Source of the DNA: Psammoneis japonica
Taxonomy: Eukaryota
Length of the DNA: 64,000 nt
Reading direction: 5' to 3'
NCBI GenBank assembly: GCA_008632985.1
Contig: QPGO01000144.1
Span: forward strand, 62,001-126,000
Made by a program: the position numbers and the translations under genes. The notes beneath the pieces were generated by a model that saw only the letters and a list, made by a program, of their open reading frames with translations, ran no database searches and was not told the DNA's origin. Positions 5,018 to 37,178 of this stretch are shown here, one piece after another. Each line of letters opens with the position of its first letter. The first letter of the stretch is position 1.

Positions 5018-5101
5018 TTGTGTGGCGCTCTTGCCGCTTCTTTGTCCTCTCCCCTGGATGAGACATCTGAAGAGCTCACCTTGCCCCCGGATCTGCCCGC
5101 T

Positions 5102-5493: not shown

Positions 5494-5499
5494 CACTGT

Positions 5500-14215: not shown

Positions 14216-15053
14216 TGTATTCTTTTTTATGAGAATAGAATTGATGTCAAATCAGAGAGAGAACAGAGTACTCGAGCAAATGAGACAAAAGTGGTATCCC
14301 CCTCGTGTCTTTTGATGGAATGCAGCTGTTGTTGCGGCCAAAGACTTATGCCGTGCCGGTATTGAGTTTGTGCGTTATGTTCCGTGTTGCGGTTTTCAAC
14401 GCTTCGTTTTCGCGATGCCTGTGTTGGTTTTCGTACATGTTCTACGTGTGACGTGATGGATTGAACATCGCACGAATAGTTTCAATCACCAACTAAGGGG
14501 CTGAATATTATATTGAAATTTCTAATTCTTTCGCTCGCACATCCCAACCTTACCAGACATCATGAGCATATTCTACCTGCTGTTTTGGGTTTGGTCGGTC
14601 GCTGGATGGATTGTTAATACAGGAGTTGCAGTGCAGAGAACAGACAAACACCGGTTGACGGTGCCGAGAGACAACCAGCCAGCTACTCACTCATGCTCCC
14701 AACGGTGGCACATGAGACCTTTTCGAGGGGACCATGGCAACCTATCTCGATCGAGTCGAGCAAGAAAAACAAACCAGTAAAGGAATGGACTACTATTCAG
14801 GATGATATTCTACTTCCCTGGAATGGCTCAACCTTCAATCTGCGGGGGTCCGACGACACAGAACACGAGGCCCATGCTGGAAACCATCAGAGCTGCGAGC
14901 ACGACTCAGTAGGTCTATATTATGCACTTTCAGGGTTAGGAATGTAACTCTCAGGTAGGAGCAGTTGCAGTCGACTTTTTGGCTCGTTTTGATAATCCGG
15001 CGTATCAAAGAGTAATCGATATGAGGAGAACCGTCTCGTTGTATAGCATGCAA

Positions 15054-15362
15054 TGGACGTGTGACGCATCCCTTGGCCGAATGCGCTCAAGCGATCTACA
15101 AAGCCAAAAATAGCTCATGAGTTTGCACCACGTGTGTGGGTTGGAGAGTACCAATGTGTGCCTATCACACTTTCATGATACATGGATGCTCTTTTATCGT
15201 GACTTAAATGCTGTGGACGTGACGCATTCCTTGGCCGACTGCACTCAAGCGAACTGCACAACCAAAAAACTTCGTGAGTTTGCAGTTTGCACCACGTGTA
15301 CGTCGGAGAGTATCTGAACGTGTGCCTGTCTACATCATTAATAATTCATCGTGACTAATGCC
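15054..15362 (+). repeat. ~155-bp tandem duplication, intergenic
   Basis: Two diverged copies beginning tggacgtg(tg)acgcat.ccttggccga and ending atcgtgact(t)aa(a)tgc. Confidence 0.75.
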
Positions 15363-15658
15363 ATCTCCAACAACGATAGATTCTCTGCACCGAGGCAAGA
15401 AGTAGAGATAGCACAGCTAAGGCCACTTTGTTAGAAGATTCTGTTCTCTAAGCTTCTGTAAAACACAGTGTCAAAGAAATGCTGCTCTCGTTAAAACTAA
15501 AAGCAACCTATAATATATATAATATATGGCACGTGTTAAAATGTATTGAACATGTACAATCCCAAATGCAGATCATCTTCCAAAGACGTCGTAATTGTGG
15601 GATGCGTCCGAACTCAGACGGCAACGGACTAAGCAATAGAAAATGCGTCGTGCATTTT

Positions 15659-18600
15659 CTACCTCCAATCGCTTCCGTGTTTCATTGCCTTCTTGCTTTC
15701 GGCGGGAACAGTTGCAATGAATCGCGTCACTTCAGTGCCTGCGAATTCGCTGCCCTCGACGATAAATCCACTTGGCACATCTTCTTCCTCTGCAACATAT
15801 ACCTGGTAAAACCCACGCCCATCTAAAGATGATATGGAAAAGCCGCAAAGTGAGTTCTCTGTTCAACAACAGCAGCAGCGCAGCAAAAACATTGAGCGGA
15901 TCACGTACCAACGCAACACAGCCCGTCTTCAAAATAATCAAATATAGTAAAACTACAGTCTGCACCTTCCGGGACATAGTGCGTTTCGGAGATTAATCCC
16001 CCCTGCCGTTCTGCGTATGTAGCGACTGCACGTAAAACAATTGTCTCGTTGTTACAACTCAGCGTCCAGCCGGTTTCCTCGGGAGCATTGTCCAGCTTAA
16101 TGACGATAGTAACGGGGGCCATATCTTCAGCCATTGTCGGAGCGGCAGTTGGTGCCTTGGGTTCATCGTCTTGTTTGTCATCTCCTCCTTTGTTGTGAGT
16201 CAATATCACAGCAAGAGCGACGACTATAGGAATAACAAGAAAGAGGACAGCAATCCATCTACACCATCGTCGCCGTTTTGCATCTTTCCTGCTGCTGACC
16301 CATGTTGCCCATAGGAAAGAATGTTTCTTTTCTTCTACCAGCTTGTCTTGCTGCTCCGCACTTTGCTCCGCAGCAGACACGACAACTGCTTCCGCATCAA
16401 TGAATGCCGCATTTTCATTTTCTTCCATAGATCCTGAGGAACTCGAGTCTGAATCGGACTCGTCACTACTACCATCGTCGTCCTCGTAGCTTGATTCATC
16501 GGACCCGCTGCCCGATTCTTCGTCTTCTTGAATCTGGTCTTCAAGCGGTGAAAACATATCCTCTTCTTCACTGTCATCGTCTTCGTCCGTCTCTTCATCC
16601 TCATCTTCAAATACCTCAAGCGGATCGTTGTTAATAGCACCTATTGCATACGCACCGGGTGACCTAAATCGTTCGTCCTGTGGAGTGACTCGAATCTTAC
16701 TCACACGTTGCATTGACGGCTGGAGTGGCATTTGTGGGCGTATTGCAACAGGGGGGGGAGCCGAGGAGTCTTCGAAATCATCATCATCCTCGTATTCATC
16801 TTCATCGTATTCATCGTCGTATTCATCGTCATCTTCAGAATCGCTGTCTTCGTTAATGGAATCCAAGGATCGGCCCGTTTGCAACGCAGATGGCCCATAA
16901 TTGTCATCGTCATTTGACGCGGAATATGCAACGCTTCTTCCAGTAGAAGGAGTGACGCCCAAAATTTCATCAGCCAGTTGCTCCGCTTCTTTCATTTTCT
17001 TTTTCATCAACGCGTCTTTTTCTTCTTGACTAATGTTGCTTATTCCATAGTACGAGCCGGATTTGTTGAGATTTGCACCATCGCCGTGAGGGTTTTCCTG
17101 AGGAAGTGATTTAGAGGATGCCGTGACGCCCATTCGCTCATCTGCTAATCGATCGGCATCCTTAATTCTTTGTTTTGCAAGCTCATCCTTTTCGTCTTGA
17201 GTCAGTTTCTTGGGAGGCGCCTTTTTCATAGCCGGAGCGACAGCACCCATGCGTTGATCCGCGAGTCGATCAGCCTGCTTAATTCGCTCTTTAGCCAATT
17301 CATCCTTTTCCTCCTGAGTCAGTTTTTTTGAAGGCGCCTTTTTTATAGCCGGAGCGACAGCACCCATGCGTTGATCCGCGAGTCGATCAGCCTGCTTAAT
17401 TCGCTCTTTAGCCAATTCATCCTTTTCCTCCTGAGACAGTTTCTTCGGCGGCGCCTTCTTCATGGCCGGAGCGACAGCACCCATGCGTTGATCTGCAAGG
17501 CGATCCGCCTGCTTAATTCGCTCTTTAGCCAATTCATCCTTTTCCTCCTGAGTCAGTTTCTTCGGCGGCGCCTTTTTCATGGCCGGGGCGACAGCACCCA
17601 TGCGTTGATCCGCCAATCGATCCGCCTGCTTGATTCGCTCTTTCGCCAATTCATCCTTTTCCTCCTGTGTCAGTTTCTTAGGAGTCGCCTTTCTCATAGA
17701 TTGGGATACTGCACCCATGCGTTGGTCCACGAGTCGATCCGCCTGCTTAATTCGCTCTTTAGCCAGTTCGTCCTTTTCTTCCTGGGTAAGCTTCTTCGGA
17801 GGCGCCTTTTTCCTAGCCGGAGCGACACCCATGCGTTGATCTGCAAGTCGATCTGCCTGCTTTATTCGCTCTTTAGCCAGTTCATCCTTTTCCTCCTGAG
17901 TCAGTTTCTTTGGGGACGCCTTTTTCATGGATCGGGATGCTACGCCCATGCGTTGATCCGCGAGTCTATCCGCCTGCTTTATTCGCTCTTTAGCAAGTTC
18001 ATCCTTTTCTTCTTGAGTCAGTTTCTTTGGGGACGCCTTCTTCATAGATGGGGATGCTACGCCCATGCGTTGATCCGCGAGTCGATCCGCCTGCTTAATT
18101 CGTTCTTTAGCAAGTTCGTCCTTTTCCTCTTGAGTCAGTTTCTTCGGCGGTGCCTTTTTCCTAGCCGGAGCGACACCCATGCGTTGATCTGCAAGTCGAT
18201 CTGCCTGCTTTATTCGCTCTTTAGCCAGTTCATCCTTTTCCTCCTGAGTCAGTTTCTTTGGGGGCGCCTTTTTCATGGATTGGGATGCTACGCCCATGCG
18301 TTGATCTGCGAGTCGATCCGCCTGCTTTATTCGCTCTTTGGCAAGTTCATCCTTTTCCTCCTGAGTCAGTTTCTTTGCAGGCGCCTTTTTCTTGGCCGGG
18401 GCGACACCCATGCGTTGGTCGGCAAGCCGATCAGCCTGTTTTATGCGCTCTTTCGCCAGTTCATCCTTCTCGAGTTGGGTAAGCTTCTTAGGAGGTGCCT
18501 TTTTCATGGATTGGGATATTGCACCCATGCGTTGGTCCGCGAGACGATCAGCCTGCTTTATTCGCTCTTTTGCCAGTTCATCCTTTTCCTCCTGAGTCAG

Positions 18601-18981
18601 TTTCTTTGAAGGCGCCTTTTTCCTTGCCGGGGCCACACCCATGCGTTGGTCGGCAAGCCGATCCGCCTGCTTTATGCGCTCTTTGGCCAGTTCATCTTTC
18701 TCGAGCTGAGTTAGTTTCTTCGGAGGCGCTTTTTTCATAGATTGGGATGCTACGCCCATGCGTTGATCCGCAAGTCGATCCGCCGCTTTGATTCGCTCTT
18801 TCGCCAGTTCATCCTTCTCGAGCTGGGTCATCTTTTTTGCAGGTGACGAACTAGCAGCTGCAGCGCCCGACGCTGCAGTGCTTCGCTTCTTCTTTTTCTT
18901 CTTCTTGCTGCTGCTGCTACCGGTGCGTGAAGGACCATCAATGCGCTTTCTATCGATTTCATCCGTTTCCAACGTCGTCAT
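15659..18981 (-). CDS. Single-pass membrane protein with 15 tandem 38-39-aa repeats and a small C-terminal extracellular domain
   Basis: Repeat KKLTQEEKDELAKERIKQADRLADQRMG(VA/AV)...KKAPP, acidic linker, PGAY motif, TM (IAVLFLVIPIVVALAVIL), PTAAPT stalk, domain LDNAPEETGW...DGLCC. An intron at ~15908-15823 joins DGRGFYQVYV...GSEF. Confidence 0.8.
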
Positions 18982-19016
18982 GGTGATTTGGATACAAGTG
19001 TGGTGTTGTAGTGATG

Positions 19017-20410
19017 ACAATGGACTATGACTCTTTCCGGTTAGGTCGTGTGATTTGGCTCGACAGAAATCAGTAGTCTAAGCAGCAGAAGAAACGCACG
19101 TAAAAGTGGGGAGATAGAAAGCTCAAACGGGACGGCATTTCAGTGACCATTTTTGAGTTTCGGTCATTGCAAGTGTTGCTATTTATGCCTAGAAGTCATT
19201 TCTTTGTTGTTTTCTTTGGTACATTAAGAATGTATTTAAATGTCGTTTTTGACGCTATGACCATAGAGGCATAAATACCGCCTCAATCGATTCGTGCGCG
19301 TTGATGACTGCCGAAAATCGAGGATCACGCAAGCAACAGCAATCTTTCGCGCTGTAGAGTCATTTACGTAGAAATGTGTAGAACAGTACCAAGATAATTA
19401 CTGAAAAGTCTGTCTGTCTGTCCTTAGTGAATTTTAACTTCGCGAAAAATGGACTTGACTGTTTTCTGATCAGGTGTATTTTTCTTCAACACATTTGCAA
19501 AAATACACCTGACCCGACAACAGTCAAGTCTATTTTTGCACAAATTGTGTGAACATAACAGTTTCAGTACAAAAACGTGTAGATTCCACAGGCGTCCACA
19601 ATTGTTTTGTGCTTTTTTTCACATTGCGGGTCATTTTCGAAAGACTCCCATTGAACGCCGTCAAACTCTGTGTTCTCTAAGGCAGGGTCCTGCCTTGTGT
19701 CTACATGCATCTTTCCAAGAAAGCTGTCAGCAGTGGCACAGTCTCTCAGCAGAACTAAATGGAGGCAAGTCTGGACACCTGCCGAGAGACTGGCGAGCTT
19801 GTGGCAATGCTGGCAATGCAGAAAAATGTGAGGCAGCGCGGGGTTGGCATGCAGCTCCAGCAGCGGCAATGGACTGTGATTCTTTCTGGTTGGGCCATGT
19901 GATTTGGCATGACAGAAATCAATGAGAGCAGAAGAAACACACGCAAAAGTGGGGCAGATTAGAAAGCTCAAACGGGGCAGCATGTTTCAGCAACCATTTT
20001 TGAGTTTCAGCCATTGCAAGTGTTGCTGTTTGTGCCTGAAAGTCATTTCTTTGTTGTTTTCTTGGGTGCATTGAGAACGCATTTAAATGTCGTTTTTGAT
20101 GTCATGACCACAGAGGCACAAACACCGCCTCAATCAATTCATGCGCATTGATGACTGCCGAAAATCGAGGATCATGCAAGAGCGCCGACAAACCACCACA
20201 CAAAACTCTGTTCTCCAAAAGGCAGGGCCCTGCCATGTGTCTCCATGTGTCTTTCCAAGAAAGCTTTCAGCAGTGGCACAGTCTCTCAGCAGAACTGAAT
20301 GGAGGCAAGTCCAGACATTTGCCGAGAGAGACTGGTGAGCTTGTGACAATGCCGGCAATGCAGAAAAATGTGGGCAATGCGGGGTTGACATGCAATTTCA
20401 GCAGTGGCAA
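19017..20410 (+). repeat. ~530-bp tandem duplication (19017-19866 with MITE; 19867-20410)
   Basis: Both units start caatggact.tga.tctttc.ggtt.gg and end gca..t.cagcag.ggcaa. The second unit is heavily TA->TG/CA mutated. Confidence 0.9.
19334..19653. mobile_element. MITE, CAATGG-TIR family, with internal palindrome
   Basis: Termini caacagcaatctttcg / cgaaagactcccattg. Absent from the sister duplicate. Homologous to 26978 and 36100. Confidence 0.8.
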
Positions 20411-20811
20411 AATCGAGACTTCGCATCGAGCAGGGTTTCCAGACAAACAAAACTTGTTGCGTGCAGTGGCAACTGCTCGCAATGTTAAGAGAGAAAGAAG
20501 ACAATCGCCAGGGGTGGTGGAATCCCCCATCTAATGCGATTTATTTTTTGATTTTTTGGTTCGGCGCCGATTAGGGGGACTAAAATCTAATCTTTTATAT
20601 GCAACCACCAATTTTTATTAATACAATAACTTACGTGGATGACGTAGCAATACAGTACCAGTGTTCCTGTAGCACTTACGTCGACGGCCGATTTATGCCT
20701 TTCAAAACCCTTCAATTCTGAATACTTTATTCAGATTCAAACAGGCTGTCGCGAGTTGGTGCAGAACAACACAAAACGGCATCACTTCTCCAGCGCTCTC
20801 TTCCCCGCACC

Positions 20812-22365: not shown

Positions 22366-23737
22366 ATGGGCAAGACACTGGAGTCTTTGGATCGCCGTCA
22401 GAATCCTGAATCGTCGGGTCCTATTGACGTGGATTATTTTCTGTCCGTGGATGAGGATAACAACGGCAGTTTTATGTTACAAAAAGTGAATGACGAAAAC
22501 AACAACAACAACAAGTCATCCACAACAGGCTCGACTCCTCGCTCGTCGCTGTTTCAAGAACTTTACGATTATGTCAAGAATCGTAGTTGGAAAAAGAAAT
22601 TATTGACTGCCATTTTAATTGTGGTGTGCGTCGTGGTGTTTATGGATTTAATTTTTGGTAATGTCATTCGAACCTGGATCAGTTCGTTTCTCGAATGGAT
22701 GAGCGCAAATTCGGTCCTGGCGGTCCTTGCCTTTATCGGGATTTTTATTGTATCGACACGTAAGTTATATATATTCGAATGAAAAATCTGTTTGTCAAGC
22801 AAAGAGAATACAGTATGGCTAACTCACCTTCATAACTTCTTCTTGCATACAATAACAGTAATTTTCATCCCTCCCTCGATTCTGATTTTTGGTGCTGGAT
22901 TTTGCTTTACCGAATCTTCAGATGGTCACATTATCATGGGTATATGTTCAGCAACGATTGCGTGCTTTTTAGGCTCGTGCATTGGTGCTCTGATTGCCTT
23001 TTTTCGGGCGCGGTACATGATGAGAGATTTGATACACTTGTTTGCTCGACGCTATCCCCTGGTGCGAGCCTACGATAAGGCCTTTAAACGGAATGGATTC
23101 CGAGTCATGGCGCTTTTGCGATTGTGTCCACTAATTCCCTTTAATGCGCTCAATTATATTGGTGGTATTACCGGCGTAAAGTGGGAAGAGTTTACCTTGG
23201 CATTGATTGGAACTTTGCCATGGATTATTCTCATGGTGACGATTGGAGCTACAGCCGGAAGCTTGGCCACGGCAGAGGCCAATGCTGCGTCTGTCAACAA
23301 TAACAATGATGATGACAAGGCAACTTTTGAAGAATGGAGTGAGCATCATCAAGTCATTGCATCCGTCTTGGTAGGCGCAGGACTGGCGAGTGGCGTCATT
23401 GCAATGATTGTTGTGTGGTACTTTGCCAAGAAGGAATTGCAAAAGGTACGTGTCGTTTTCTCATCATTTTGCAATGAGAAACAGCTCTCGACTTAAGGTT
23501 TGTTTTTTACTTTGGTCTCTTTAGGAAATGGACAGTGACGACAAGACAGACGCGATACAGGAAGTCACAGACGTAGCTCCTCCATCAACTCCACAGGATC
23601 AAGACTTGGATTCCATTGAAGCCAATAGGAGCGGTACGGTACATTACAATGCTTCAGACGATGAGAAAGATGGAGTCGAAACTAGCTTTCAAGAAGGAGT
23701 GGACGATGAAGAATGGTTTTGGGTTTGGACTGCCTAA
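22366..23737 (+). CDS. TVP38/TMEM64 (SNARE-associated/DedA family) membrane protein, 2 introns
   Basis: FIPPSILIFGAG, GALIAFFRARY and LLRLCPLIPFNALNYIGG motifs. Introns at ~22760-22858 and 23446-23524. Confidence 0.88.
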
Positions 23738-24184
23738 GCTTGTTCTTGTGCCAACAACAATAGATACAGCTACAGTATCAGTTACTGTAACTACTTTAGA
23801 TGCAATCTTATTTCTAGCGGCAGTGTTTCGATCTTTTCTAAAGAATGTAAAACCTTTATCTGCTGCGGGATCTCTTTCAGTCAGATGTCACTACCGTACA
23901 TGTAAGCTATCGTGTACCGGTAGTCTATTGTTGAAAACCCAGCAAAGGAAACGCTGGGCACTGCGTTGTGCACTCCCTATCCCTTATCTGATCAAATCAT
24001 TGGCACACATCACGCACCTCTGCGAAGTACACGATGGGGATGCATTTCGAGGTCAGAGTTCAGATTTCAGCGATGATTATTGACGTCAGATACTAGAGCT
24101 CAGAGCTCATCTCATCGTTGCGCTTACCCGGTTAAAAAAGACAGGCTCAGGAATAGGGTCCGCTGCATTTTTTAGAAACGAAAT

Positions 24185-24913
24185 ATGTCTCTTTTTGTGC
24201 GAATTTTCGTGTTGACACTGGCGCTCTTGTGTTCGCAAGTGCTCTCTTTTAATGCGGGTATGAATGGAATTCGTCCTTCAGTTATTTCTTTAAGAGCAAG
24301 TCCCCCACTCCCAAACTTTTGTTCGGAGTGTGGACAAGCATCCATGGAGTTACGAATCCCCGATGGTGACGAGCGAGAACGAGCTGTGTGTGCCGCTTGC
24401 GGTCGAATCGAGTACACCAATCCAAAAGTGGTGGTTTCCTGTGTCGTAAGGACAAACGACAAACACATACTACTTGGAAAGCGAGCGATTGAACCACGAA
24501 AGGGTTATTGGGGAATACCGCAGGGTTTTCTAGAACATGGAGAGACGACTCGACAAGCCGCTGCCCGAGAAGTACGAGAAGAGACGGGAGCTGTTGTATC
24601 GGATCTAGAGTTACGAGCCGTCTACAATGTACCTGGGTCGGTTCAGATTGTCTACGAAGCAACTGTGGATGAAGAGGTTGCTCAAAATCAAATTGCATCA
24701 TCTACTGCAGAATCGTCCGAAGTAGCATTCTTTTCACCCGAAACCGTACCATACGATGAACTCTGCTTCCCGACCGTTCAATGGGCTTTAGATCATTGTG
24801 TTTCAATGGAGAAGAGCGAATCAACTCCACATATTCAACAAAAGACGAAGTTCTACGATGCTAAACTTGACTTGTGGAGTGAGTCTGAGGACGAACCACC
24901 AAGAATTTCGTAG
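24185..24913 (+). CDS. Nudix hydrolase with N-terminal zinc ribbon (NUDX23-like), probably plastid-targeted
   Basis: FCSECG...C.ACGRIEYTNPK zinc ribbon and Nudix box GFLEHGETTRQAAAREVREETG. Signal peptide followed by S-F. Confidence 0.9.
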   Translation: MSLFVRIFVLTLALLCSQVLSFNAGMNGIRPSVISLRASPPLPNFCSECGQASMELRIPDGDERERAVCAACGRIEYTNPKVVVSCVVRTNDKHILLGKRAIEPRKGYWGIPQGFLEHGETTRQAAAREVREETGAVVSDLELRAVYNVPGSVQIVYEATVDEEVAQNQIASSTAESSEVAFFSPETVPYDELCFPTVQWALDHCVSMEKSESTPHIQQKTKFYDAKLDLWSESEDEPPRIS

Positions 24914-24978
24914 CTATTGCAAGTCAAAGTGAAGACAAATCAAGATGACTAGCTATAGGTCGCATACGATACTGCTCC

Positions 24979-26660
24979 TCACATCATTGTGAACGTGTGT
25001 ACAGATCCGGATTTCTCACCATTCGAATCGCGCTCTCTCGAACCAACTACAAGAGTTGTGCCGTTTCCTGACAGCGAAATGGACGATCCAAAGTAGTCTC
25101 CACTCTAGCCGCTCCATTTAATCGACCGCCAACTTGAACCCAATCCTTTTTGCTTGCATTGTATTGAAATGTGACGACTTGTCCAGCATTTGTCCGTCCA
25201 TCAGCATCATGTATAGGTAGCTCCCCACGGCAAGAATGCTTCCAGTTCTGCTCAAGGACACGGCTGCACCAAATCGTTCGCCGTGTTGCTGACTCAAGAG
25301 CGGCGAACCACGTACGTTGTGCCCACGTGGCCGTTTCGCGGTCCAGCGTGTAAACTACGACTCTTCCAAGAACCGTGCCGTAAAAGACATGTCCCGGTGC
25401 ACCCACAGCCAAGATCAAACCCGTGTCATCCAGACAACTTGAACACCCAAACAAACCTTCGGCAACTTGTCCAACAATGGGAAAGCCGAGTGGTTCCCAA
25501 AGCGACGATGAAACATCATGCTCGCACACGTGGACTTGTCCCGAGGCATTTCCACCCAAGTCACCAAAGTGAGCACCAATCGTCACAATCGTTCCCTGGC
25601 CATTCAAGGAAATGGACACGCCAAAGCGGTCGCCACGTGCTTGTCCAAGCAAAATTTGTCCATGTTGGTCCCAGGAGCATGTGTCGGCATTGCAGCAAAA
25701 CAATTTTGCAGATCCGGAGCTGCTGCCATTTCCAGTGTCATCATTGGGAGCTCCAATGGCGAGAATGCTCCCCTCTTGTGACAGTGACAGGGAACATCCA
25801 AAACCACTGCTGCTGCTGCCAGTGGTGTTCCCAACAATGCCCTTGCTGATCTGGTGCCATCGCTGCGTTGCAGGGTTGCACCTGTGCACTTGAACACTGC
25901 CGACATCATTCAGTCCCCCGCTGTCACTGCATGTTGCTCCTGTTGCAAGAATCGTTCCATCAGGACTCAGCACAATGGATCCTCCAAACTCATCACCATT
26001 GGCTGCTCCCACCAATTGTTGACCCAGCGGCATTCAAAGACTGTCATGACTGTGGCACAAGACAGACACACAGCCGGGGTGATGAGAAGAAGGAAGGGCT
26101 TGCGATGCTCCCACAGCAAGGATTGCACCATCATGTGACAAGGAAACGGCTTGACCAAACCAAATGGTCAGGAGATTTTCCAGTCAATTCTCTAGTCCAC
26201 GTTGGAGCCAGGTTTGGATTGTGAGATTCAAGACTTCCTCATCATGAGTCAGCAAGAAGGACAAGGAGTTTGGGGTCCCAGTCATTGGGGGTGCATGTGT
26301 TGATGGCACAATGGAAGGTGACACGGCAAAAAGTCTCTTGGGGGAAACAGTGGGCTCCAGAGTCTGCTCCAGATTCTGTCCATTGTTGCGGTTTCTGGCT
26401 TCATTGTTGTGATCGTTTCTCAATGACACCGGCACTGCAATCGCCAGCACAGCAACAACAACAAAAATCAAAAGCACAGCAACCCCCGCAAAAATTGTGA
26501 AATGATTGCATCCTTGTCACACAGACACACTCCATCAGAATGGCAAGACGATTCATTGGCGTCCTCCTTTGTTGACAACGAGTTCACGGTTGATGCATGT
26601 TGTGCATTTGTTCTTTGTTCTTTGGCACAAAATTCCAATCTGAAGATGGCATCATCGCTT
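24979..26660 (-). pseudogene. FG-GAP-like beta-propeller membrane protein gene, 5' three-quarters hypermutated
   Basis: Repeats GDEFGGSIVLSPDGTILATGA and GDRFGVSISLNGQGTIVTIGA, TM LLIFVVVAVLAIAVPV. Frameshifts. Tyr is lost at coordinates above ~25390. Confidence 0.8.
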
Positions 26661-26977
26661 CTTTGTTTGCCACCCAGCCATGCTTGTCAATCAACAAAAT
26701 CAAATCAAATGTGTGTTGGAATGCGATTGATGAAGTTTGGCAACAATTGCACAGTGCTGCAGCCTCAATTCCACAACCACTTTCTTCTGACAGTGAGCAT
26801 GGTGACAAAATGCCGAGCCCGCTGCTGCAGTGCTCCTTGTCACCATGGCTGCTGTGCCAGAAAAGAAGGACAATTGCGCCGGCATGGTTGCCTTTTGTGA
26901 GACTGTGTTTTTGATTTCACTCTGCGAACAGCAGACCACAGCCCATCTTTTGATGTGTTTTCAACCCAGGTGGGTCA

Positions 26978-27186
26978 CAATGGCAATCTTTTATGCTGCA
27001 GAGTCATTTGCACAGAAATGTGCAGAACATTTGCAAAAATGCACCTGACCCGACAACAGTCAAGTCCATTTTTGCACAAATTGTGTGAACACAACAGTTT
27101 CAGCACAAAAACGTGTGGGTTCTGCAGGCATCCACAACTGTTTTGTGCTTTTTATGTCACGGGTCATTTTCGAAAGATTCCCATTG
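26978..27186. mobile_element. MITE, CAATGG-TIR family, internally deleted
   Basis: Termini caatggcaatctttt / cgaaagattcccattg. 3-bp TSD tca/tcg. Lacks one arm of the internal palindrome. Confidence 0.8.
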
Positions 27187-28997
27187 TCGGGGACAATGCA
27201 CGAGGTTTTCTGCACATTTCCATGTGACACACACTTTTTGCACCACAACAGTGTGCAATTTTTGAGCTCCCACATGATGCCATCTTTTTTTCATGCCTCA
27301 CCCACAAACCACAAATCGCGCACACCAAAAATGGCGCCATGCCGCTGCCATGAACTTGACCATCCTTGCACCATCGTCCACAATGACAAAGAAGGTGAGA
27401 ATGCCAAAAGATGTCAATGAGACTGAGGTCAATGTGATGATGTGGTTGAAGCTTTGATTTTTGCCATTTGTTGTGTCTTGTGGACACCAGCCTTTTTCCT
27501 CATGACATTTTTTATGCCAATTTTTCTCATCCTCAGATTGCGATGCGGCATTCTTTGACACGCAAGGCTCTGTTGACTTGATGCTTCATACACACAACAA
27601 TGCATGTCTTTGTGATGTGTCAGTGTGATTTTTATGATGCATTGAGCACACTTTAAGTTGGCGTGGATGACACTTTTGGGTCAAGTGCAAACATCAAACA
27701 TTGGCACCAAAAAAAGAATGATTTTCTGCATTCAGTTTTGAGGGCGCATGGTGATGAAGAAGCCACTGGATGAGTCCAACAGGTGCAACATTGTAAAGCA
27801 GAACAAAAAAAAGTGACATCTGTGTGTTGCATCCATTTTGCTTTGTTCTGAGGTGGAGCAGGTCAATTGCACATGTGGAAATGCTGTCTGCATTTTGTTG
27901 TTGCCACATCAGAGTGCACGACATCGCAATGTCTGCACGCATGACAAAATTACATTGCTGCATTGTAAAATTTACTTGTCTGCACATGATGGTTTTTGTC
28001 ATTTGGCCAATTGTCAATCTCCTGCCATTCTTCATGTTTGAACACAGGTGCTTTTTAATTTTCATGCTCAGCCTTTTTCACAACAACCAACGATCTTCAA
28101 CGACAAGCCAAACATTGCAACTGCGTGCAATGAAATTTTCATCATGCAAAGTGTGCGCTGATCATTCAATCAACAACTGTGCTCCAATTGGCCCATTCGT
28201 CCACATTGTCCTCTTCATTCCACATGTCTTGTCCGCTCTCTTGCAAGAATTTCAAATGTGCCGCTGCCGTGTTGGATGTTTCCTCATCACTGTTCCAAAA
28301 AAGCCACACTGCATTTCTTGCATTTGGGTGAACATCATCGAGAGGAAGAGGTCCCTCGAAATGCAGAATCGCATCACTGCTCCCCTCTTGACGTCGTGTC
28401 GTCTGCTTCTTTTTCTCTTTCTTCATTTTGCCCGTCCCATTTTTCTCTTCCTTGTTCATCTTGGCGCCACCTGTTTTCACCATCTCTGGCGTCTTTCCAT
28501 CCGAATCCTTCTTTTTCATCGATCCCGTCGCTGTCGCCTTCATCGTGTGTCACTTTGTTTTGGATCCATGTTTCTGACTTCTCTCTGTGTTGTCTCCATT
28601 TCCGAATGTTTCTTTGTGATTGTTCGCACACATCACTTGAAGGCACCCACGTGTTCTTCACGTGCCTTAAAGCGCATGTAGAAATCCATGTTGTTTTCCA
28701 GCACATGCACCCTTTCTCCTGATGCATGTTTGCACAATGTTTTCTTCCATCAATTCTGCACTCCGCATTGCCCTTTCCCAGCATGATCTCACGCAGGATT
28801 TCTCTGGGAGAAGTCACATGCGCGTCTGGCTGGTTTTTGTGTTTAAAACTCCAAATCCCATCAGGCGCGCATGTGACTTCTCCCACCACTCTGGCATGTT
28901 TCCACAGAAACCAGAATTTTGTGACTGACGCACGACCAATCTGGTGAATGCAATGGCGGACCCACGACCACAACAATCAGAGCATTAGAAGAAAACC

Positions 28998-29897
28998 ATG
29001 TCAGATGAACTCCGTCCATCCAATGATGAGGATTTCCGTCACTGGATGACGGAGACAGTTGATGGTTTTGTTCACGCTGACGCTGCTCGTTGTTCGGAGG
29101 AACAGAGAGCAAAGGATGCAAAGGCTGCTGTGTCAAGATCGGCGGAAGCAATGGCAGAAGCCCATTGTGCGTTGTGGCTGCAACGACCGCACTTGAGAGT
29201 GCTTTGTTAAATCAAGCAACAACCACTCGCGAATTTAAGCACACCCATGCACAGTGCATCAAGTCATCGATCAAGACACACTGTTCAGACAACGACCATG
29301 TTGTTGCAGTGGAAAATTGCAGCAAAGCAGAAATGAGTTTCCAGCACTTTCTTCGCGGCAACGCATTTGATGCAAAAGAGCTGGGGCTCCCAATCTCCAT
29401 TGCGGGACACAAAAATCAGAATGTGGGCTAAACATGCTGCACAGCCATGACTCGACGTTGCTTCTGAGAAGCCTCAGGGCAAATTCTGACACAGACACCA
29501 CAAGAGCAGCAGAGAGGGAGTTTTCTGCAATTGACAGCATCAACAAATCCATCCACCACCGTGCCGTGCCACTCCTTCAAAGGCGACATCTAACACAGCC
29601 GCAGCACATCCTGAAGGACACAATCACGTTGCTCCACAAGGCCCTTGACGATTTGACAAGGAAAGACGTTGCCTTGCAGTGACTTTGCATGATCTGAGGC
29701 CAGGCACAGATCAAATGTGGGGAGGGACATGGACCGCGATCCGGGCTGTGGATGAAGAAGCCATGGCAAGAGAAAGGGTCCTGCAGCTGGCATTGCAAAT
29801 TGAGGCACAATTGGTGGCTGTCAACCAGCCTGACCACAGCGCCGACTTTCAGCAGGCAATTGTGGCTGCCAGGGAACATTTCATGGTTGCAGGATGA
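28998..29897 (+). pseudogene. Broken helical ORF of unknown function adjacent to the transposase 3' end
   Basis: Consecutive protein-like fragments (MSDELRPSNDEDFRHW..., AIRAVDEEAMARERVLQLALQIEAQL) in shifting frames, Tyr-free. Confidence 0.3.
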
Positions 29898-29998
29898 CTG
29901 AGTGGACCATGCAAGTGGACACTGCATGGAATCTGTGAGGAAGCAATTGCTCTGAAACTGCACACACTGTGAGTGAATGACAGATTGACACACGTGTC

Positions 29999-32900
29999 CT
30001 GTTTTAGAAACAAATCTGACCAACACTTCCTTCTGTCCTGTGTGGCCCAAACAAGCGGGGCCTTTTCTTGTGCTTCTGCTGCTCCTGGACATTCTTCACA
30101 AACCAAAACATTGTCCCCAATTGCTTTGACAGGGACAACACGTAACTTGGGTGAGTGCTGAGTCTTCTCAGGCGTTGAAAGCCAGTTGTTTCATTTGTGA
30201 TCAAGCTGCCAGCAACTGACCAAGTCTGTGTGCTGATGCCGTTGCCTCACAGTTCTCTGGTCAGCTTGACAAGCAGTTGGATGGACCACTGCAAAAATCG
30301 ATCCTGTGTCTTCCTGTTCAAAGAAACACAGCAAACGGGAGGGAAACTGTTGATCGCCCTTTCGTGTGCCAAAGGTCACACAGGCAAAGTCATGCCATGG
30401 TCCTTCACTTTTGCAATTGGGGTGCGCACAGCAAACATCCCTCCCGTTTGCATTGCAAAACTCTGTCTTGCAAGTCAGGTGTGTGTTTTCACTGTCTTCA
30501 CCAACACAATCCTCCCACTTTTCCGACATGAAGTTTGGCAACACAGGATGAACTTGGCAACGAGCATGCTCACTGTTCCACTCAAACGTCACAGCGCCAA
30601 TCCCTCGGTTGCAGGTGAGAGTGAGTGCACTTCCTCCCAGTGTGTGATTGTCCATCCTGACTCTTGATGATTCCTTTTTCCCAGTTGGCAAAATCCAACT
30701 GTCAGCTGAAATTGCGGCATTGAGCCTCATTTGGTCCTCCACATGCGACACGACCTGCTTCAGAAAACTGTTGAGGTTGCGTTGTTGTGTGGCAGATGAC
30801 GGCAGCTTGAAAAAGTCTTTCAAGAGACATTCCCCCAAGCCTGCGTCAAAGTTCATCGCATGTTGGCAATGACAAAGAAACACTGGGAGATGGAGTGTTT
30901 CATGAAGCTTTTGAAGCTTTCCCCCACATCCTTCTGTTCGCGGGACGAATTGCACTGTCCGGTCAATGAGGAGACGGATTTTCTTGTGTGTTTTCTGAAT
31001 GGATGAACTGGGAGTTGCGCTTGTGATGGGTGGATTGCCTAGCCTGCACCATGCGTGGAAGACAAGAAGGTCCTCAAGCAATTGAATGAATTGCTGGACG
31101 CTGCAGTCAAGTCTTTTTCCCTTGCATTTTTTCTTTTTTTGGTTGTCGTCACCATCCTCAGCCTCACTCTTCTCTTTCTCATCCTCATTTTCGTCCCAGT
31201 CACCCTCTTTGGACTCCTCTGACCTTTCATCATCAGAGTTGTCCAAGCACTCACTAGGTTGGTGGCAACTCTCAAAGTTTGCTTTGGGCATCTTGCGATT
31301 CTCTGGAACAATGGGTTTGTCTGCGTCCTCGTCAAGGAAGCATGACTCACATGCGTTTCGTCCCTCGCTGGTTGACAGGAGAAGGCAGAAAACAAAAGCC
31401 ATTCCAGCCCAGTGGTGAGAGTTGAGAAAGGCAAGCAACGTTGCTCCTCCTTTGAAGTTTGTTTGCAAAAAGGATGCTTTGCAAGTTGACCGGTGATTGC
31501 TGAAAATCCTTTCCACCATGCTGTCCACCTCACTTGCGACCACAGGTGTCATGCTGTCTACAAATGAATTGATCACCCTTTTCAAGGTGCCGTTTTCAAA
31601 GAGATGCATCATGTCGATTGCTGTCGCAAGGGTGATGCCACATGGTTGTGCACCAAAGTCTGCCTCAAAAAGACAGTTGGCAGGTGCGCTGTGTTGCTTG
31701 AGGCAATGCAAGATGCCCAACCAGTGCTTCCTTTCTTGGTCTGATCTGTTGTCGTCGTTGGCCTCAGTTTGCACTTGGTGGAGATCCAGTCCCAGGACAA
31801 ACTTGCATTCAATCCATGGGTCGTCCAGTTTGTTGAAGCCAGCGAGGCAAAAACGACAGCAACGTTGACGACAGTTGTGACCTCCGCATCGTCCAACGAG
31901 ACAGTCGCCACTTTTTGCGTCTCCTGTGATGAGAACGATCAGTGGGATCACATGGAGGTGTCGCATCTCATCCCCTCGTCGACGCGTTCCAGCCCTGGGT
32001 GGGAGCTCGCAGTGCTGACGTGTGACAACAACAATTTTTGTCATCCGTCACATGTTTCGTACGCAGATTTCTACGTGTGATGTTTAAAAAAAATTGTCCA
32101 GACTCGCTGTTTTGCAAAGCCCCAGACGTTTTATATGACAAATTTATAGAAACAACAATGTGCCAGTTACATTCTTCAATGTCTGAAGAATGTAACTGGT
32201 CAAGTAAAAAATGATGCACTTCAATCATGTGCGAGTTTGTGCGTTCGCAAAATCGCCTCATTTTCTGTTGGCGATCATTGACATTTTAATTGCCGCACAA
32301 TTTTACTGCGGAGCTCGCACGTAGAAGTCTACGGGCCCAATGTCACACGGATTCCCACCTGCATCTGGAACGCGTCCGTCGCACGCATGTTTTCATGCCT
32401 CCTTTTCTCATGACTTCCAAAAGTGGCTCCAAAACAACGTGCAAGCAAGTGTGGCAGTCTCTTGACGAGCGTCCCTTCTCCGCCTTGTGATTGTTTGAGA
32501 GATTCTTTGCCGCAGATGACGACATCTTTTCCAAGTCCAGGAGACAACCAATTGGTTTCCAGACATTCTTGTCCAACCATTTGTGAAGGCAACATGCGCA
32601 GAGGTCATGATCACTGGCTCTCCGCAATGTGATCCCATCCCTTGTGTCCTGCCAGTCTTGTCGACGTAAATGACATTGCACTTGAGAAATTGTTTCTACG
32701 GGTCAGTCATCCGTTCTTCACAACTGCACCTGCACCACTCACCCGCCAAAAGGCACTTGTCATCCGGTCCCTTCGCTTTGCACTTCCCAAAAGGATTGTC
32801 TGGATCGGCCACATTCTCTCTGCTGCGCCACAGGTGAGGATCAAGCAAAAACTGTTCCCAAACCTTTGTGAAATCCCATCTTGGCACTGACGCTCGTTTT

Positions 32901-33700
32901 GGCAAACCGGTTTTGAAATTTTTGGTTTCTAGAGTGACAGGAACAGACTTGCTGGGTGGAAGAGGGAAATGCTTGGTTAAGGTGCGCATCAACTCTTTTC
33001 TCCTTGGCAGAACTGCACCAAGCTCAATGTTGCTGTTGCCAGTGTGCCTCTCAATGAAATCAACAATGCAGTCGCACAATTCCAGGGGAGCACCACATGT
33101 GTCCATGAGCTTCTTGCACAACTCTGCGCAAGCTCCGTCAAGATTTGTCAAAGAGGGAGTGGAAGCCAAGCCCTCTTCTGCAGGAGCGTCACACCTGATC
33201 CCCAAATGTTGGTCCTCATCATTGATGTCCTCTTCCTCCTCCATTGTCACGCCCAACACTGCAGCAAAGGATTGACCACCGCCAACATCCAAATCGTTCA
33301 TTGCTGAAAGTTCAACTCCTTGCATGCTGTGGTTTGATGAAACAGAGGACATGTCATCCATTCCGTGCGGTGCATCATCCAGGGAGGGGAACAAGGGGCT
33401 GCTGCTTGGATCACTCATTGAAGATCTTGGGAATCTGCTGCGAGTTGATCGCCTTGGATGGGATTCGTCATCATCAGAGGATGAAGAGGAAGAGCTGCCG
33501 CTTTCTTTGGGTGGCCCCTCTGTTGTGGCAGGAATGTCACTTTGATCTGGGATTGGATCTTGGGTTTGCAACTCTTGGGCAACTGAGCAACACGTCGGCG
33601 AGCATCTCCAATGGCAGGCCATTCGCAAAAACCACAACCGGGACAGAGAAGAGGGTTTCCGTCCATTGCAAATCAGACAACATTGACAGGGCCTTCATCA
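29999..33700 (-). pseudogene. Plavaka/CACTA(CMC)-like transposase, near full length, interrupted by a MITE
   Basis: DKTG...GEPVIMT, WKPIGCL, RDCHTCL, LIVLITGDAKSGDCLVGRCGGHN..CRFC, DMMHLFENG, KLQKLHETLH...NFDAGLGECLLK, CCAHPNCKSEGPWHDFACV, FPSRLLCFF, WSDLF. Family assignment is from remembered motifs, not a search. Confidence 0.8.
31981..32376. mobile_element. MITE, GTTCCAG-TIR family (subfamily A), 396 bp
   Basis: Perfect 12-bp TIR gacgcgttccag/ctggaacgcgtc and 4-bp TSD cgtc. Removing it restores the transposase frame GGMKTCVRRGDEMRHL. Confidence 0.95.
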
Positions 33701-34118
33701 AGACTCACACTCGTTGTCCTTGTCTTGTGGATGAGAAGGGAAAAAAAGAACAACACACAAAAAATGGCAGGAAATTGGCAAACATTGCATTGTCTTCCAG
33801 ATTTGGATGATTCTCACAGGTGTGACATGTCTGCATTTTGATTTTTTTTCTGGCATCCACAATGAATGTTGCACTTTTTATTTGCCATCAAAATGCAGGA
33901 CATTGTCTCCGTTGAAATGCAATGACAGCCACATCAAAAAGCAAGTTGGGCCATTCGTTGTCACACACAAACACATTTTCAAATTTCAAATGTTGCTGAC
34001 AAAATTTGTGCAATGTCACAGAGAAAAACAGAGTGCCTGGCTGTCTCAACATGACCCAAATGATGGTTGCACTGTCAAACAGTGCCGCTCCTCTCATTGT
34101 TGCCGTGAAAAGATCAAG

Positions 34119-35339
34119 ATGTTGTCTCCAGCACAACCGGCAAAGAAGAGAAAGAAACATGAGACCATCAAGCCAATGAGCCCGAGACTTCAGGCAGTGT
34201 TGAAGAGAACAGGTGCGCAGGCAGCGCATGGTGCATTGAAATCAGAAGTAAAGAAGGTGGCTAGAAATGATCTCTTTCCACAGGTGAAGTTTCTCAGTCC
34301 GTCAGAATTGGCAAGCAATGGGAGCGTCTCAATGTTTGTCAAGAAACAGATTGCTGGTGGCAACATGGACACTTCAAATTGGTCAGGAACTTGGGAGGAA
34401 TGGGCAAAAAAGGCGGTAAAAAGGCAAGTTGACAATCGCAGAAACACGGTGTGTTCGGCTGTTGGGGTGGAGGCAATGGCCCGTAAGTCAAGTGACCAAT
34501 GTGTGTGAATCGAGAGTTGCACGTGTCTCACAAGAAGATGAGGGCGATGCTTCATCCATGTGGGCGTTGTCACTGAGGAAGAGGGAAAGGAAAAAGAAAA
34601 GAAACTCAAGGTGGCAGACAGGAGGAAAAAGTGGAAAAAGTCAAGCCGTGACAAGAATGAAGAGAATGACATCCTGTTTGTGCCGACATGGGATCCGTTC
34701 AGCCTGGACACTGTCACCGGCGGTAAACGAAGGAACAAGCAGGCACACAAGTGGTTCTGTGATCACATGCTGCCTCAAACCGAGCAAAAGCAGGCATGGA
34801 GCAGTGCCATCAAAACTGGGAATGCACAGGTCTCACAGTTGTTTGCGGTTGGTGACAAAGCTTTGGCGCCATTGGCTGTGGAGAATTGTTGGCAGGTGTG
34901 GGCATGCAGGAACAAGGAGGAGGCGGTGGAAGAATTGGGTGAGGAAATGGAGCCTGAAGAAACAAGGCCTGCCCCTTGGCACACGACGAAGCCAAAGAAA
35001 CAACAAGTGTCTTGGGGAGATGACGGAATCAATCGGTCCAATGATTTGTGCAAAGAGGTGACGAAAGATGGAGACTCCAAGGAGGGCAAGGAGTTTGAAA
35101 AGTGGCATGCGGAGATCAAGAAAAGCGAGTGCAAGAAGTCCGGAGAAGCAAAAAAGAAGAAAAAGAAAGCACCAACCGGCAATGCGGACAAGGTGAAGGC
35201 AATGAACAGCCCAATGGTGGAGAGCAGCAGGGACGACAACAGCAATGATGATGAGCAGGAGGAAGGCGCAAAAGGCAAAACGGACGACGGAGGAGACGAG
35301 TCCGACGATGATCGTCAGCTTAGTTTGAGAGAGTTGCAG
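34119..35339 (+). pseudogene. Element accessory ORF2 (copy 2), divergent from the transposase
   Basis: Highly similar to 3406-4659. Donor gtaagt at 34483 is intact. The stop TAG has become CAG at 35337-35339. Confidence 0.65.
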
Positions 35340-36099
35340 CAAGAAAATGTGCACACAGTTAACATGGCACTCGGTCATTGCACTGCAGACACAACAAGGG
35401 ATTGACCCAACTGATGAAATGCTTTTCTCATTTAAAATGATGTTTGCAAAAATTGACAAACCAAGGATTGTGTGGAGATGCAATCACGCATTGGCATGTG
35501 GCAACAAGGTGGAGGCAGATGTGGTGATGTGGACATGGTGAAAAACAGCACACACAATTCTTGGTGAGTCATTGCGATGTTGGCACAGCAAACTTGCAAC
35601 CAGAGGTTGGCCTTTCATCACATGACAACAATGTTTTGCAATGTTTTGACAAATTGTCATCATGTAAATCTGCACATTTTTAACATTTCGTGCACTCTGA
35701 TGCACTGCTTCTGCTCATCAAATGACTCAATCACTCTGCATTCATCAAACTTTGTTGCTGGCATTTCGGTGCTGGCGTGCAACTGACTCAAGACTCCCAC
35801 ACAGGTTGACAGATCAGCCGATCTTTGAAACAGCGGATCGCGCAAAAATGCACATGCAAAGTCAGTTCCCCCGATTTTTCACATGCAAAAAATGGAGTTG
35901 GAATGCTGTTTTTTTCAACATGAGCTCTTCACACAACAGAGAATGCGGACATCCTTTCAAAACAGTCAAACTGGACAAAAGAAACAGAGAAACAGCGACT
36001 CAAAGTCATTCAAAAAACTGCCGCGCGCAGTTTCCCGTCATTTTGAGACCAAAAAATTGATTTCGAAAGAGCTTTCTCTTTTTGTCCGCACCCTCCAAC

Positions 36100-36427
36100 C
36101 AGTGGCAATCTTTCGTGCTGTGGAGTCATTGTTTCATAAATGCGCAGAAATCATGCAGACCAATGCCAGCAAAAATGTGAAGTTGTCTGTCCATCTGCCC
36201 TCAGTGAGCTTCAATTCTGCAAAAAATGGACTTCACTGCAATTTGATCAGGCACACTTTAGAACAACACATTTGCAGAAATGTGCCTGATCAGTTAGCAG
36301 TGACATCCTTTTTTGCAAAAGTTTTGAGAAGACAACAGTTTTGGCACAAAAATGTGTAGATTCTGCGGACGTCTGTGAGTGATTTGTGCATTTTGCATCA
36401 TGGGTCATTTTTGAAAGATTCCCATTG
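36100..36427. mobile_element. MITE, CAATGG-TIR family, diverged copy
   Basis: Termini cagtggcaatctttcg / tgaaagattcccattg. 3-bp TSD aac/aac. Confidence 0.8.
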
Positions 36428-36597
36428 AACAAAGAAGGCAGCCGGTCATTGAAAATGAACAGATCTGATGAAAGAACAAGCAAAAAATTGGGGGAAAGCA
36501 TGAGCTCAGATGAGAATTTTTTCTCGCACAAAAAGCACGGTGACGGAAAACATGCAGACGCAATGTGACACCCTCTTGTGCACTGCGCGCATGACCC

Positions 36598-37178
36598 ACC
36601 TGGAACACTGACAAAAATGTCACCAACACAGAAAAACTGCAACATTTTGCACACAAATGAGACAATTCTGTGCACTCTTAAAGCCTCGCTTGTTTGTGAA
36701 ATTGCCCCATTGAACAATTGCATGTCGCCAATGTTTGAGAGACACATTTTTCTCAAGTGATCGGGAGTGCTCTTAAGTGTCACATCGTTTGTCTCCATTT
36801 GTCTCCATTTGTCTCCACTTGTCTCCACTGTGGACTGTCTCCGTTTGTCTCCATTTGTCTCCGTTTGTCTCCATTTGTCTCAGTTTGTCTCCGTGTGTCT
36901 CCGTTTGTCTCCATTTGTCTCTGTTTGTCTCCATGTGTCTCCCTTCTCTAAAACTCACATGCACACAAAAAGACACTTAAGAACACCATGTGTTGCTTGA
37001 GGGCGGTTGGTGATTTTGGCGACATTGTCGAAGTGTCACATGGAAAACAGTGATTAAAATTTATTCAATGCAGTCATTTGCACACCAAACAGATTGCAAG
37101 ATTGCACTTGATTGTCTCATGCAGATGCAAAATGTCTCAGTTTTCTGTTTTGGTGACATTTTCATCAGTGTTCCTGGG
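36598..37178. mobile_element. Foldback-type element: ~190-bp imperfect inverted arms around a minisatellite
   Basis: ggaacactgacaaaaatgtcaccaacacagaaaaactg..acattttgc mirrors gcaaaatgt..cagtttttctgttttggtgacattttcatcagtgttcc. Inner pairs are atgagacaat/attgtctcat, atgtcgccaa/ttggcgacat and cttaagtgtc/gacacttaag. Confidence 0.75.
36788..36943 (+). repeat. 10-bp minisatellite (tttgtctcc[a/g]), ~15 units
   Basis: Directly visible tandem array. Confidence 0.95.

Follow-up and report, generated by a model that had tools for sequence, protein, structure and literature searches.

The 64,000-nucleotide stretch analysed here (the window; Psammoneis japonica contig QPGO01000144.1, positions 62,001 to 126,000) contains five blocks of hypermutated DNA, one of which ends inside a gene encoding an FG-GAP repeat protein (gene A, minus strand). 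The 5' three quarters of gene A have been rewritten, with tyrosine (Tyr) codons changed to histidine (His) or cysteine (Cys) codons, and the 3' 400 bases are untouched. The process acts at the DNA level, is strand-symmetric and consists almost entirely of transitions, with block edges that are sharp to approximately 50 bases. It has two components: an A-to-G change at 5'-TA-3' on either strand, which is near saturation and is strongest at T-A-Y and weakest at TTAA, and a C-to-T change at CpG, giving TG or CA, which is incomplete and variable between sub-blocks. The evidence described below supports position, rather than homology or element identity, as what defines the target.

The depleted blocks occupy 1-11830, 19581-20485, 25382-32050, 32331-40500 and 55838-64000 (35.7 kb in total); they range from 0.9 to 11.8 kb in length and alternate with normal DNA. 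Their observed/expected (o/e) ratios are 0.06 for TA, 0.40 for CG, 1.73 for TG and 1.72 for CA, versus 0.57, 1.01, 1.14 and 1.17, respectively, in the 27.6 kb of normal DNA. The G+C content is equal in the two fractions (0.478 in the blocks and 0.479 in normal DNA) since the two conversions offset each other. TA is lost evenly across the blocks, whereas CG loss varies by sub-block (o/e 0.0 to 0.8). There is no local strand bias: |TG-CA|/(TG+CA) is 0.15 or less in every depleted 1-kb bin. The first block and the one at 32331-40500 were delimited by composition, the latter having a gradual right edge at 40300-40840; the edge of the block at 55838-64000 is sharp and was placed by both composition and change point. 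Every depleted block examined contains repeats. Within 25382-32050, the repeats are at 26950-32050, a hypermutated segment identified as high-copy by read depth, with a unit resembling a miniature inverted-repeat transposable element (MITE) at 27027-27186.

In gene A, TpA is dense through position 25381, and the next occurrences are at 26193, 26992 and 27153. The TA-free run following 25381 is 811 bases long, versus a maximum of 175 bases among the 1059 gaps between TAs in the 27.6 kb of normal DNA. Edges were placed using a two-rate change-point model, with 2-lnL support intervals. At this locus, the model places the TA change point after 25381 (support 25381-25431), with 56 TA in the 1382 bases to the left and 2 TA in the 1619 bases to the right. 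Reading of the codons narrows the edge in a similar way: GHVFYG contains the last TA to be kept, in its Tyr codon, and conversion probably begins with the TGT codons of FGCSSCL. From the two approaches combined, the TpA edge lies in 25382-25434. The 3' part of gene A (24979-25381) has normal composition, with 13 TA, a TA o/e of 0.54 and a CG o/e of 1.21. The hypermutated part (25382-26516, minus strand), in which the membrane segment and five FG-GAP repeats share a single unbroken frame (Pfam FG-GAP_2, E 6.8e-14), has a single TA in 1135 bases. Upstream of the membrane segment, 26517-26950 is single-copy hypermutated DNA with no TA and a CG o/e of 0.47, made up of the remains of the gene A N-terminal region and upstream DNA.

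The translation of 25390-26516 (375 amino acids [aa]) has no Tyr, 15 His and 12 Cys, and the FG-GAP part of a second FG-GAP gene in the window (paralogue B, 387 aa) has 14 Tyr, 7 His and 1 Cys. Over 120 homologues, Tyr, His and Cys make up 3.9%, 1.4% and 0.5% of residues, respectively, and the residue most often aligned with either the His or the Cys of gene A is Tyr (20% each). Paralogue B is an intact 687-aa open reading frame (ORF) at 43655-45718 on the minus strand, recognised by Pfam and by its ORF. Its protein is 33% identical to that of gene A, with no detectable similarity at the DNA level, so this residue comparison holds at the level of the repeat motif and not for orthologous positions. 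A search for an orthologue of gene A among proteins of 575-2000 aa gave a best match that was only 41% identical.

An earlier reading of this sequence (the first-pass annotation) had described a hypermutation front caught inside a host gene, based on peptides that differ between the two parts of gene A. All of the peptides that it quoted were found on the minus strand: GHVFYGTVLGRVVVYTLD and FQYNAS are located below 25390 and VHRCNP, FGCSLSLS, LFCCNAD and VHVCEHDVSSSLW above it, where they had been placed, and the ORF of the paralogue has VRVYRR, FGYAVALS and VYVYQYESSSSEW. The switch that it placed within tens of bases agrees with the support interval of the TA change point. The sharp edge is therefore well founded, but nothing shows that the edge moves, and we do not retain the term front. 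Similarly, the description of paralogue B as intact is correct for its ORF; at 33% identity, it is too distant for the positionwise comparison that had been made.

The CpG component has an edge of its own. From its value in the 3' part of gene A, CG o/e falls to 0.87 in 25382-25640 and to 0.33-0.47 in 25641-26950 (0.33 in 25641-26000). The CpG change point is after 25636 (support 25627-25761), which places the local CpG-depletion edge in 25637-25684, approximately 250 bases deeper into the block than the TA edge; the two support intervals do not overlap. The TpA and CpG components are thus separable, TpA conversion being the faster, saturating one. Loss of CG to TG or CA within the blocks is of the type produced by decay of 5-methylcytosine (5mC). 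At the other edges, the TA and CpG change points either agree (55837 and 55888; 20485 and 20413) or have the CpG one on the normal side (11830 and 12196). A constant offset between the two edges was considered and rejected: the offset is approximately 250 bases in gene A and approximately 50 bases at 55837, with approximately 70 bases on the depleted side at 20486 and approximately 365 bases on the normal side at 11831 also contradicting it.

The direction of change can be read from a local duplicate with an unmutated member at 19018-19333, which serves as the reference, and a hypermutated member at 19867-20180 (both plus strand; pairwise alignment). Thirteen of the 15 TA in the reference are converted in the other member (7 to TG and 6 to CA, with 2 kept as TA), as are 11 of its 18 CG (4 to TG and 7 to CA, with 7 kept). 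Transitions account for 38 of the 42 substitutions in this pair. By context, the A-to-G changes are at TAT (6), TAC (3), TAG (3) and TAA (1), and 11 of the 15 C-to-T changes are at NCG. The TAs that survive in the blocks are complementary to this spectrum: TTAA makes up 30% of them versus 5% in normal DNA, and ATAT, GTAT, GTAC and ATAC together account for 3 of 141, versus 31% of normal TAs. The order of preference is T-A-Y > T-A-G > T-A-A, corresponding to R-T-A on the opposite strand.

The same changes are found in a decayed transposon-like ORF at 30191-32047 (minus strand, 618 aa), which has no Tyr, 30 His and 36 Cys. Its only database relative is P0202, which is 60% identical. Of 16 aligned Tyr in P0202, 14 are Cys or His in the window (12 Cys and 2 His), the others being 1 Ile and 1 Ser. 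When the ORF was used alone as a query, no relative was identified in metagenome or viral contigs; adding the P0202 alignment as a query recovered four metagenome loci. In an alignment of P0202 with three of the metagenome relatives, all five columns that are uniformly Tyr are Cys (4) or His (1) in the window, and the conserved Phe, His and Trp columns of these four proteins are mostly retained. The metagenome relatives have normal ratios (TA 0.50-0.66, CG 0.70-0.79), so the element family is not intrinsically TA-free. The ORF may be Plavaka/CACTA-like, although this is a lead only, taken from an Atlas lead of Plavaka type and a weak Plavaka match at 32346-32702 (E 0.0095, below the cut-off). 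Among 122 window ORFs searched against Pfam, the depleted blocks gave only this match and DC_STAMP (E 0.0091), both sub-threshold, and no Pfam match was found for P0202 or for three ORFs of metagenome locus L001.

Comparison of repeat copies that lie within blocks bears on the timing of these changes. In three such pairs, CA in one copy is opposite TG in the other at 37 of the 53 double differences listed (a 2-kb pair), 9 of 9 and 7 of 8, with transition/transversion counts of 157/30, 27/1 and 28/0. The control is a duplicate in normal DNA: 42665-43496 (plus strand) is 87% identical to 24233-25052, a region that includes a NUDIX hydrolase gene and the last 73 bases of gene A, which is the only DNA-level duplication found to involve gene A. 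In this pair, none of 10 doublets is CA opposite TG, and there are 54 transitions and 42 transversions. Because CA/TG doublets would be independent resolutions of an ancestral TA or CG, the sequences indicate that the changes were made in place, after duplication and independently in each copy.

Contigs assembled from public reads of the same organism (Logan, run X1) were aligned to 23500-28500. One contig of 2282 bases spans 24775-27056 without gaps and with two differing letters (24956 T>G and 25867 G>A), so the junction, the in-frame stops and the frameshifts discussed below are all present in the reads. The depth of this contig is 66.5, and that of the single-copy flanking contigs is 52-61. 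Depth remains at 66.5 up to the bin at 26673-26839 and then rises to 450 in 26840-27006, 8,072 in 27007-27173 and 20,310 by 28343-28500; joints from other repeat copies begin at 26972/26978, leading to 27189-27199. Since depth is single-copy until the repeats near 26950, approximately 1.5 kb of single-copy DNA (25382 to approximately 26950) is hypermutated. The two possibilities that the first-pass annotation had named as fatal to its reading, an assembly chimera at the junction and a transposon-captured fragment present in many copies, are both answered by these data: an independently built contig bridges the junction with even depth, and the segment is single-copy at a likeness of at least 85%. 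At 25867, which lies inside the hypermutated unique segment, the window has CG and the read contig CA, possibly an allele or strain difference; this is the sole hint in the data of change on a recent timescale.

The converse situation is found at the block edge at 19580, which crosses a copy of the high-copy MITE-like element (19339-19656, plus strand; copy comparison). The first 240 bases of this copy are in normal DNA and keep 15 TAs; the corresponding sites in the copies at 36105-36430 and 27027-27186 (the latter unit has a read depth of approximately 8,000) read TG or CA. Past 19580, no TAs are kept. The 0.9-kb block that starts here thus begins within a repeat unit, and unit boundaries are ignored. 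The 87% duplicate carrying the NUDIX gene shows no hypermutation signature. Position defines the target, because unique DNA is mutated inside a block and a high-copy element copy is spared outside one, and because one member of a duplicate (19018-19333) is untouched and the other (19867-20180) is converted. This bears out the earlier proposal that position rather than transposable element identity is decisive, both for the mutated unique DNA from 25382 to approximately 26950 and for the MITE-like copy spared up to 19580. No convincing sequence motif was shared by the five sharp edges, and neither tRNA genes nor Rfam families, considered as possible boundary elements, were found in the 64-kb window.

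Gene A is a pseudogene. Its membrane segment lies near 26430-26510, seven FG-GAP-type repeats follow, and the stop is at 24979; although FG-GAP_2 (PF14312) repeats are detected, the reading frame is interrupted. Two in-frame TGA codons (26184-26186 and 26034-26036) are located in the otherwise continuous 1.1-kb hypermutated frame, and the repeats are in three frames: FG-GAP_2 matches are at 24982-25104 (E 2.1e-10), 25121-25354 (E 0.15) and 25332-26033 (E 1.3e-14), with no match in the main frame over 25050-25331. Three apparent frameshifts are placed at 25310-25317, approximately 25200-25225 and approximately 25097-25116, the first and second by motif reading. Because of the two stops and the repeats in three frames, the label host gene used in the first-pass annotation does not fit this locus. 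The frameshift at 25310-25317 resembles a 4-base tandem duplication, ACGTACGT. The TGA at 26034-26036 stands exactly at the position of a conserved Trp in the other repeats, and a TGG-to-TGA change is likely.

We consider domain-guided TpA and CpG hypermutation, covering transposon blocks and the adjoining unique DNA, to be the best explanation for these observations, with a probability of roughly 0.7. The target would be a silenced chromatin or DNA methylation domain that is nucleated by transposons and extends over neighbouring unique DNA. CpG loss would occur by deamination of 5mC, by analogy with Phaeodactylum, and TpA loss may be the work of an enzyme that deaminates adenine in DNA to hypoxanthine, a mechanism already put forward for Bigelowiella natans. 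The natural site of ADAT/TadA enzymes is A34, which follows an invariant U33, and this fits the T-A context. A more specific form of this explanation, which we put forward tentatively and would not yet bet on, is a homology-independent diatom defence in which a chromatin-guided T-A-Y adenine deaminase rewrites the TpA of silenced transposons, together with 5mC-driven CpG decay, up to boundaries precise to approximately 50 bases. If this were true, the domain boundary would set the reach of the defence, such that neighbouring genes could be erased, and the presence of the signature in a chlorarachniophyte as well would mean either that the system is ancient among eukaryotes or that it has spread between algal lineages.

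Several observations weigh against domain-guided hypermutation in this simple form. The CpG edge and the TpA edge fall at different positions (25636 versus 25381 in gene A, and 12196 versus 11831), so one shared domain boundary is too simple. A repeat at 31981-32376 has near-normal TA and CpG inside depleted DNA; either the process is therefore discontinuous, which would fit episodic action as between B. natans lines, or the insertion is recent. All three frameshifts in gene A are in the 400 unmutated bases and none is in the 1.1-kb mutated frame; with uniform indels, the chance that three would all fall in the unmutated quarter is approximately 1% ([330/1430]^3), which is unexplained. By motif reading, both stops of gene A are at positions where Trp is expected, suggesting TGG-to-TGA changes that belong to neither signature, and 12 of the 36 context-scored changes in the polarised duplicate pair, mostly transitions, are outside TpA and CpG. 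Since TA is palindromic, A-to-G with a 3' pyrimidine is the same as T-to-C with a 5' purine at the sequence level. For P. japonica, both the deaminase and guidance by chromatin are wholly inferred. Finally, it is possible that the read run and the window derive from one sample, in which case the run provides an independent assembly and not an independent individual.

The near-normal repeat has further copies at 9526-9746 and 63163-63864; the three have long inverted arms, are 91-94% identical and have near-normal TA and CpG within depleted blocks. There are 10 TA in 31981-32282, and CG o/e is 1.12 in 32001-32500. If this repeat is a young insertion that is not yet hypermutated, it may provide a natural clock for the process.

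One variant of the domain model, compatible with it, reverses the roles of the two sides of each edge: silent DNA would be mutated by default, and active genes, together with a few hundred flanking bases, would be shielded by open chromatin or transcription-linked repair. Position 25381 would then be the limit of a protected zone 3' of the NUDIX gene, lying over a dead neighbour, and not the tip of a spread from transposons; gene A is dead in any case. This variant is consistent with the location of the sharp edges, since the distance from each of them to the end of a long ORF is 20-700 bases: 22 bases for 55837 (upstream of the first long ORF in a BEACH-domain gene), approximately 150 bases for 11831 (ORF at 11978), approximately 500 bases for 19580 (ORF ending at 19077), approximately 680 bases for 20486 (ORF at 21166) and 468 bases for 25381 (beyond the stop of the NUDIX gene). 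Not all silent DNA is mutated, however, as 13395-15901 (2.5 kb without an ORF of at least 200 aa) keeps normal TA, and the occurrence of repeats in every depleted block examined also speaks against this variant; we therefore regard default mutation with shielded genes as unlikely, though as the most serious of the alternatives. The spreading from a transposable element domain that had been proposed earlier is supported in that the mutated region does reach into unique DNA outside such elements, with the reservation that sequence alone cannot separate spreading from protection by the NUDIX gene. The palindromic nature of TA leaves room for a different chemistry, in which TpA would be lost because thymine receives a mutagenic modification leading to T-to-C changes, such as hydroxylation to 5-hydroxymethyluracil at TpA sites of silenced DNA. 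As R-T-A is equivalent to T-A-Y, the spectrum fits either base, and in dinoflagellates 5-hydroxymethyluracil is concentrated at TpA and TpC. This modified base pairs normally with A, however, no data obtained here favour it, and the sole study of the signature proposes adenine deamination, making thymine chemistry improbable.

The remaining alternatives fare considerably worse. Most of the depleted DNA is repetitive, and the repeat-induced point mutation (RIP) of fungi leaks into adjacent unique DNA, such that a RIP-like process could have mutated the 5' part of gene A because it was once duplicated. This process is largely refuted and we give it very little weight: 25382 to approximately 26950 is single-copy at a likeness of at least 85%, the duplicate member at 19018-19333 is untouched, a copy of a high-copy element is spared outside the block, the 87% pair at 24233-25052 and 42665-43496 lacks the signature, and the chemistry is the opposite, with TpA destroyed and not created. 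Editing of an RNA or mobile intermediate (ADAR-like, followed by reverse transcription) would account for the T-A context, in that ADAR prefers U before the edited A (according to the discussion in 10.64898/2026.01.13.699255); alternatively, a transposon could have captured and carried the gene fragment. Both strands are hit equally, however, copies were mutated independently after insertion, the segment is single-copy, and the frame and the FG-GAP repeat series are unbroken across the edge; this explanation is also largely refuted, and its chances are slighter still. An assembly chimera, or systematic miscalls at modified bases, is just as improbable. The assembly is not flawless, having two isolated N (39373 and 56107, both within depleted blocks), but the independent read contig reproduces 24775-27056 with two differences, no gap and even depth, and each ancestral TA has been resolved differently between copies, as TG or as CA, which systematic miscalls would not produce.

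The only organism in which TpA-directed hypermutation of DNA has been described to date is B. natans, where it affects viral inserts (Mettrop et al., 2026 preprint, bioRxiv 10.64898/2026.01.13.699255). The main text of that study describes TpA-to-TpG/CpA hypermutation on both strands in mutation-accumulation lines, hitting two integrated viral regions (nucleocytoplasmic large DNA virus [NCLDV] and virophage), where the mutation rate, followed in real time, is raised approximately 1000-fold and varies episodically from line to line. Genome-wide, the authors count 124 TpA-poor clusters; they find reverse-transcriptase and DDE domains enriched among TpA-poor genes and name an ADAT2-like candidate for adenine deamination. 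The window shares with that system the conversion of TA to TG or CA on both strands, the discrete kb-scale regions and the depletion of TpA with a gain of CpA and TpG. The differences, as far as that text describes the B. natans system, are substantial. A diatom and a chlorarachniophyte belong to different supergroups, and the targets here are high-copy transposon-like repeats instead of single-copy viral inserts. TA o/e is 0.06 here, near saturation, versus a Rho of 0.45 in the B. natans NCLDV region, and CpG is co-depleted here (o/e 0.40), whereas the B. natans spectrum is exclusively AT-to-GC. The rate was measured there in real time, and the evidence here is a sequence footprint. A viral target is not indicated in the window: apart from the two sub-threshold matches, no Pfam domain, viral or other, was found in the 122 block ORFs, and no relative in viral contigs, and read depths in the thousands indicate transposon-like repeats rather than viral inserts. 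The main text of the B. natans study makes no mention of CpG, trinucleotide context, boundaries, host genes or diatoms, and the literature searches made gave no report of TpA hypermutation in diatoms. New here are the second eukaryotic supergroup, the targeting of transposon blocks to near saturation, the accompanying CpG decay and the positional targeting.

RIP of ascomycetes is similar in that it is transition-only and dinucleotide-specific, inactivates repeats, and spills into adjacent unique genes and kills them; the blocks described here share the first three properties and the leak into unique DNA. RIP converts CpA to TpA, raising A+T, and needs duplication, hitting both copies. In the window, by contrast, TpA is destroyed, G+C is unchanged between blocks and normal DNA, one duplicate member is spared and unique DNA is hit. 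The conversion of CG to TG or CA in transposon blocks, to a degree that varies by element, resembles methylation-driven CpG decay of transposons in vertebrates and plants; nothing there corresponds to the TpA component, which is faster and saturated. Among diatoms, transposons of Phaeodactylum tricornutum have been reported to carry H3K9me2/3, H3K27me3 and DNA methylation (PMC4504042).

Positional targeting directs the search for a mechanism towards chromatin or methylation domains over homology or RNA guides. The edges are fossil marks of domain boundaries at base-pair resolution that can be compared with maps of 5mC and histone modifications. The blocks also affect annotation: they hide transposon proteins from domain searches (no Pfam match above the cut-off in 122 ORFs) and yield long false ORFs that automatic gene callers would predict, and they can inactivate genes adjoining transposons. 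The 35.7 kb of depleted DNA has 117 ORFs of at least 110 aa, overlapping and on both strands, that are not genes; such ORFs arise because the stops TAA and TAG need TA.

The window is taken to be part of a diatom nuclear chromosome, probably of a raphid pennate species, judging from the best named relatives, Amphora and Seminavis. The G+C content is approximately 48%, and genes are on both strands, with long exons and GT-AG introns of approximately 85-95 bases. The recognisable genes are the NUDIX hydrolase gene, the two FG-GAP_2 repeat genes and a large BEACH-domain gene. The NUDIX gene (24176-24913, plus strand) is intact and converges on gene A (Pfam NUDIX, E 1.7e-19; Zn_ribbon_Nudix, E 2.9e-15). 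Among named relatives, those closest to its protein come from two diatoms, Amphora coffeaeformis (61%) and Seminavis robusta (54%), and the diatom names Bacillariaceae sp. and Attheya are among the FG-GAP homologue matches. With its membrane segment and seven FG-GAP_2-type repeats, gene A resembles paralogue B and many FG-GAP_2 membrane proteins of diatoms and marine bacteria, differing from intact members in its two stops and three apparent frameshifts. The NUDIX copy at 42665-43496 is broken and sits just downstream of the stop codon of paralogue B.

The intact BEACH-domain gene (46237-55815, minus strand; Pfam) has 5' exons at 52653-54275, 1.5-3 kb from the edge at 55837, in which TA o/e is 0.16, 0.35 and 0.48 by codon phase and the o/e of TG+CA is approximately 1.5. 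The low TA in these exons is not clearly beyond gene-to-gene variation and may reflect mild hypermutation filtered by selection or amino-acid composition. A minus-strand ORF of 1058 aa at 15901-19077 is without a Pfam match. It contains approximately 15 tandem copies of a 117-base (39-aa) unit at 17125-18845, where AT skew is strong, reaching -0.43.

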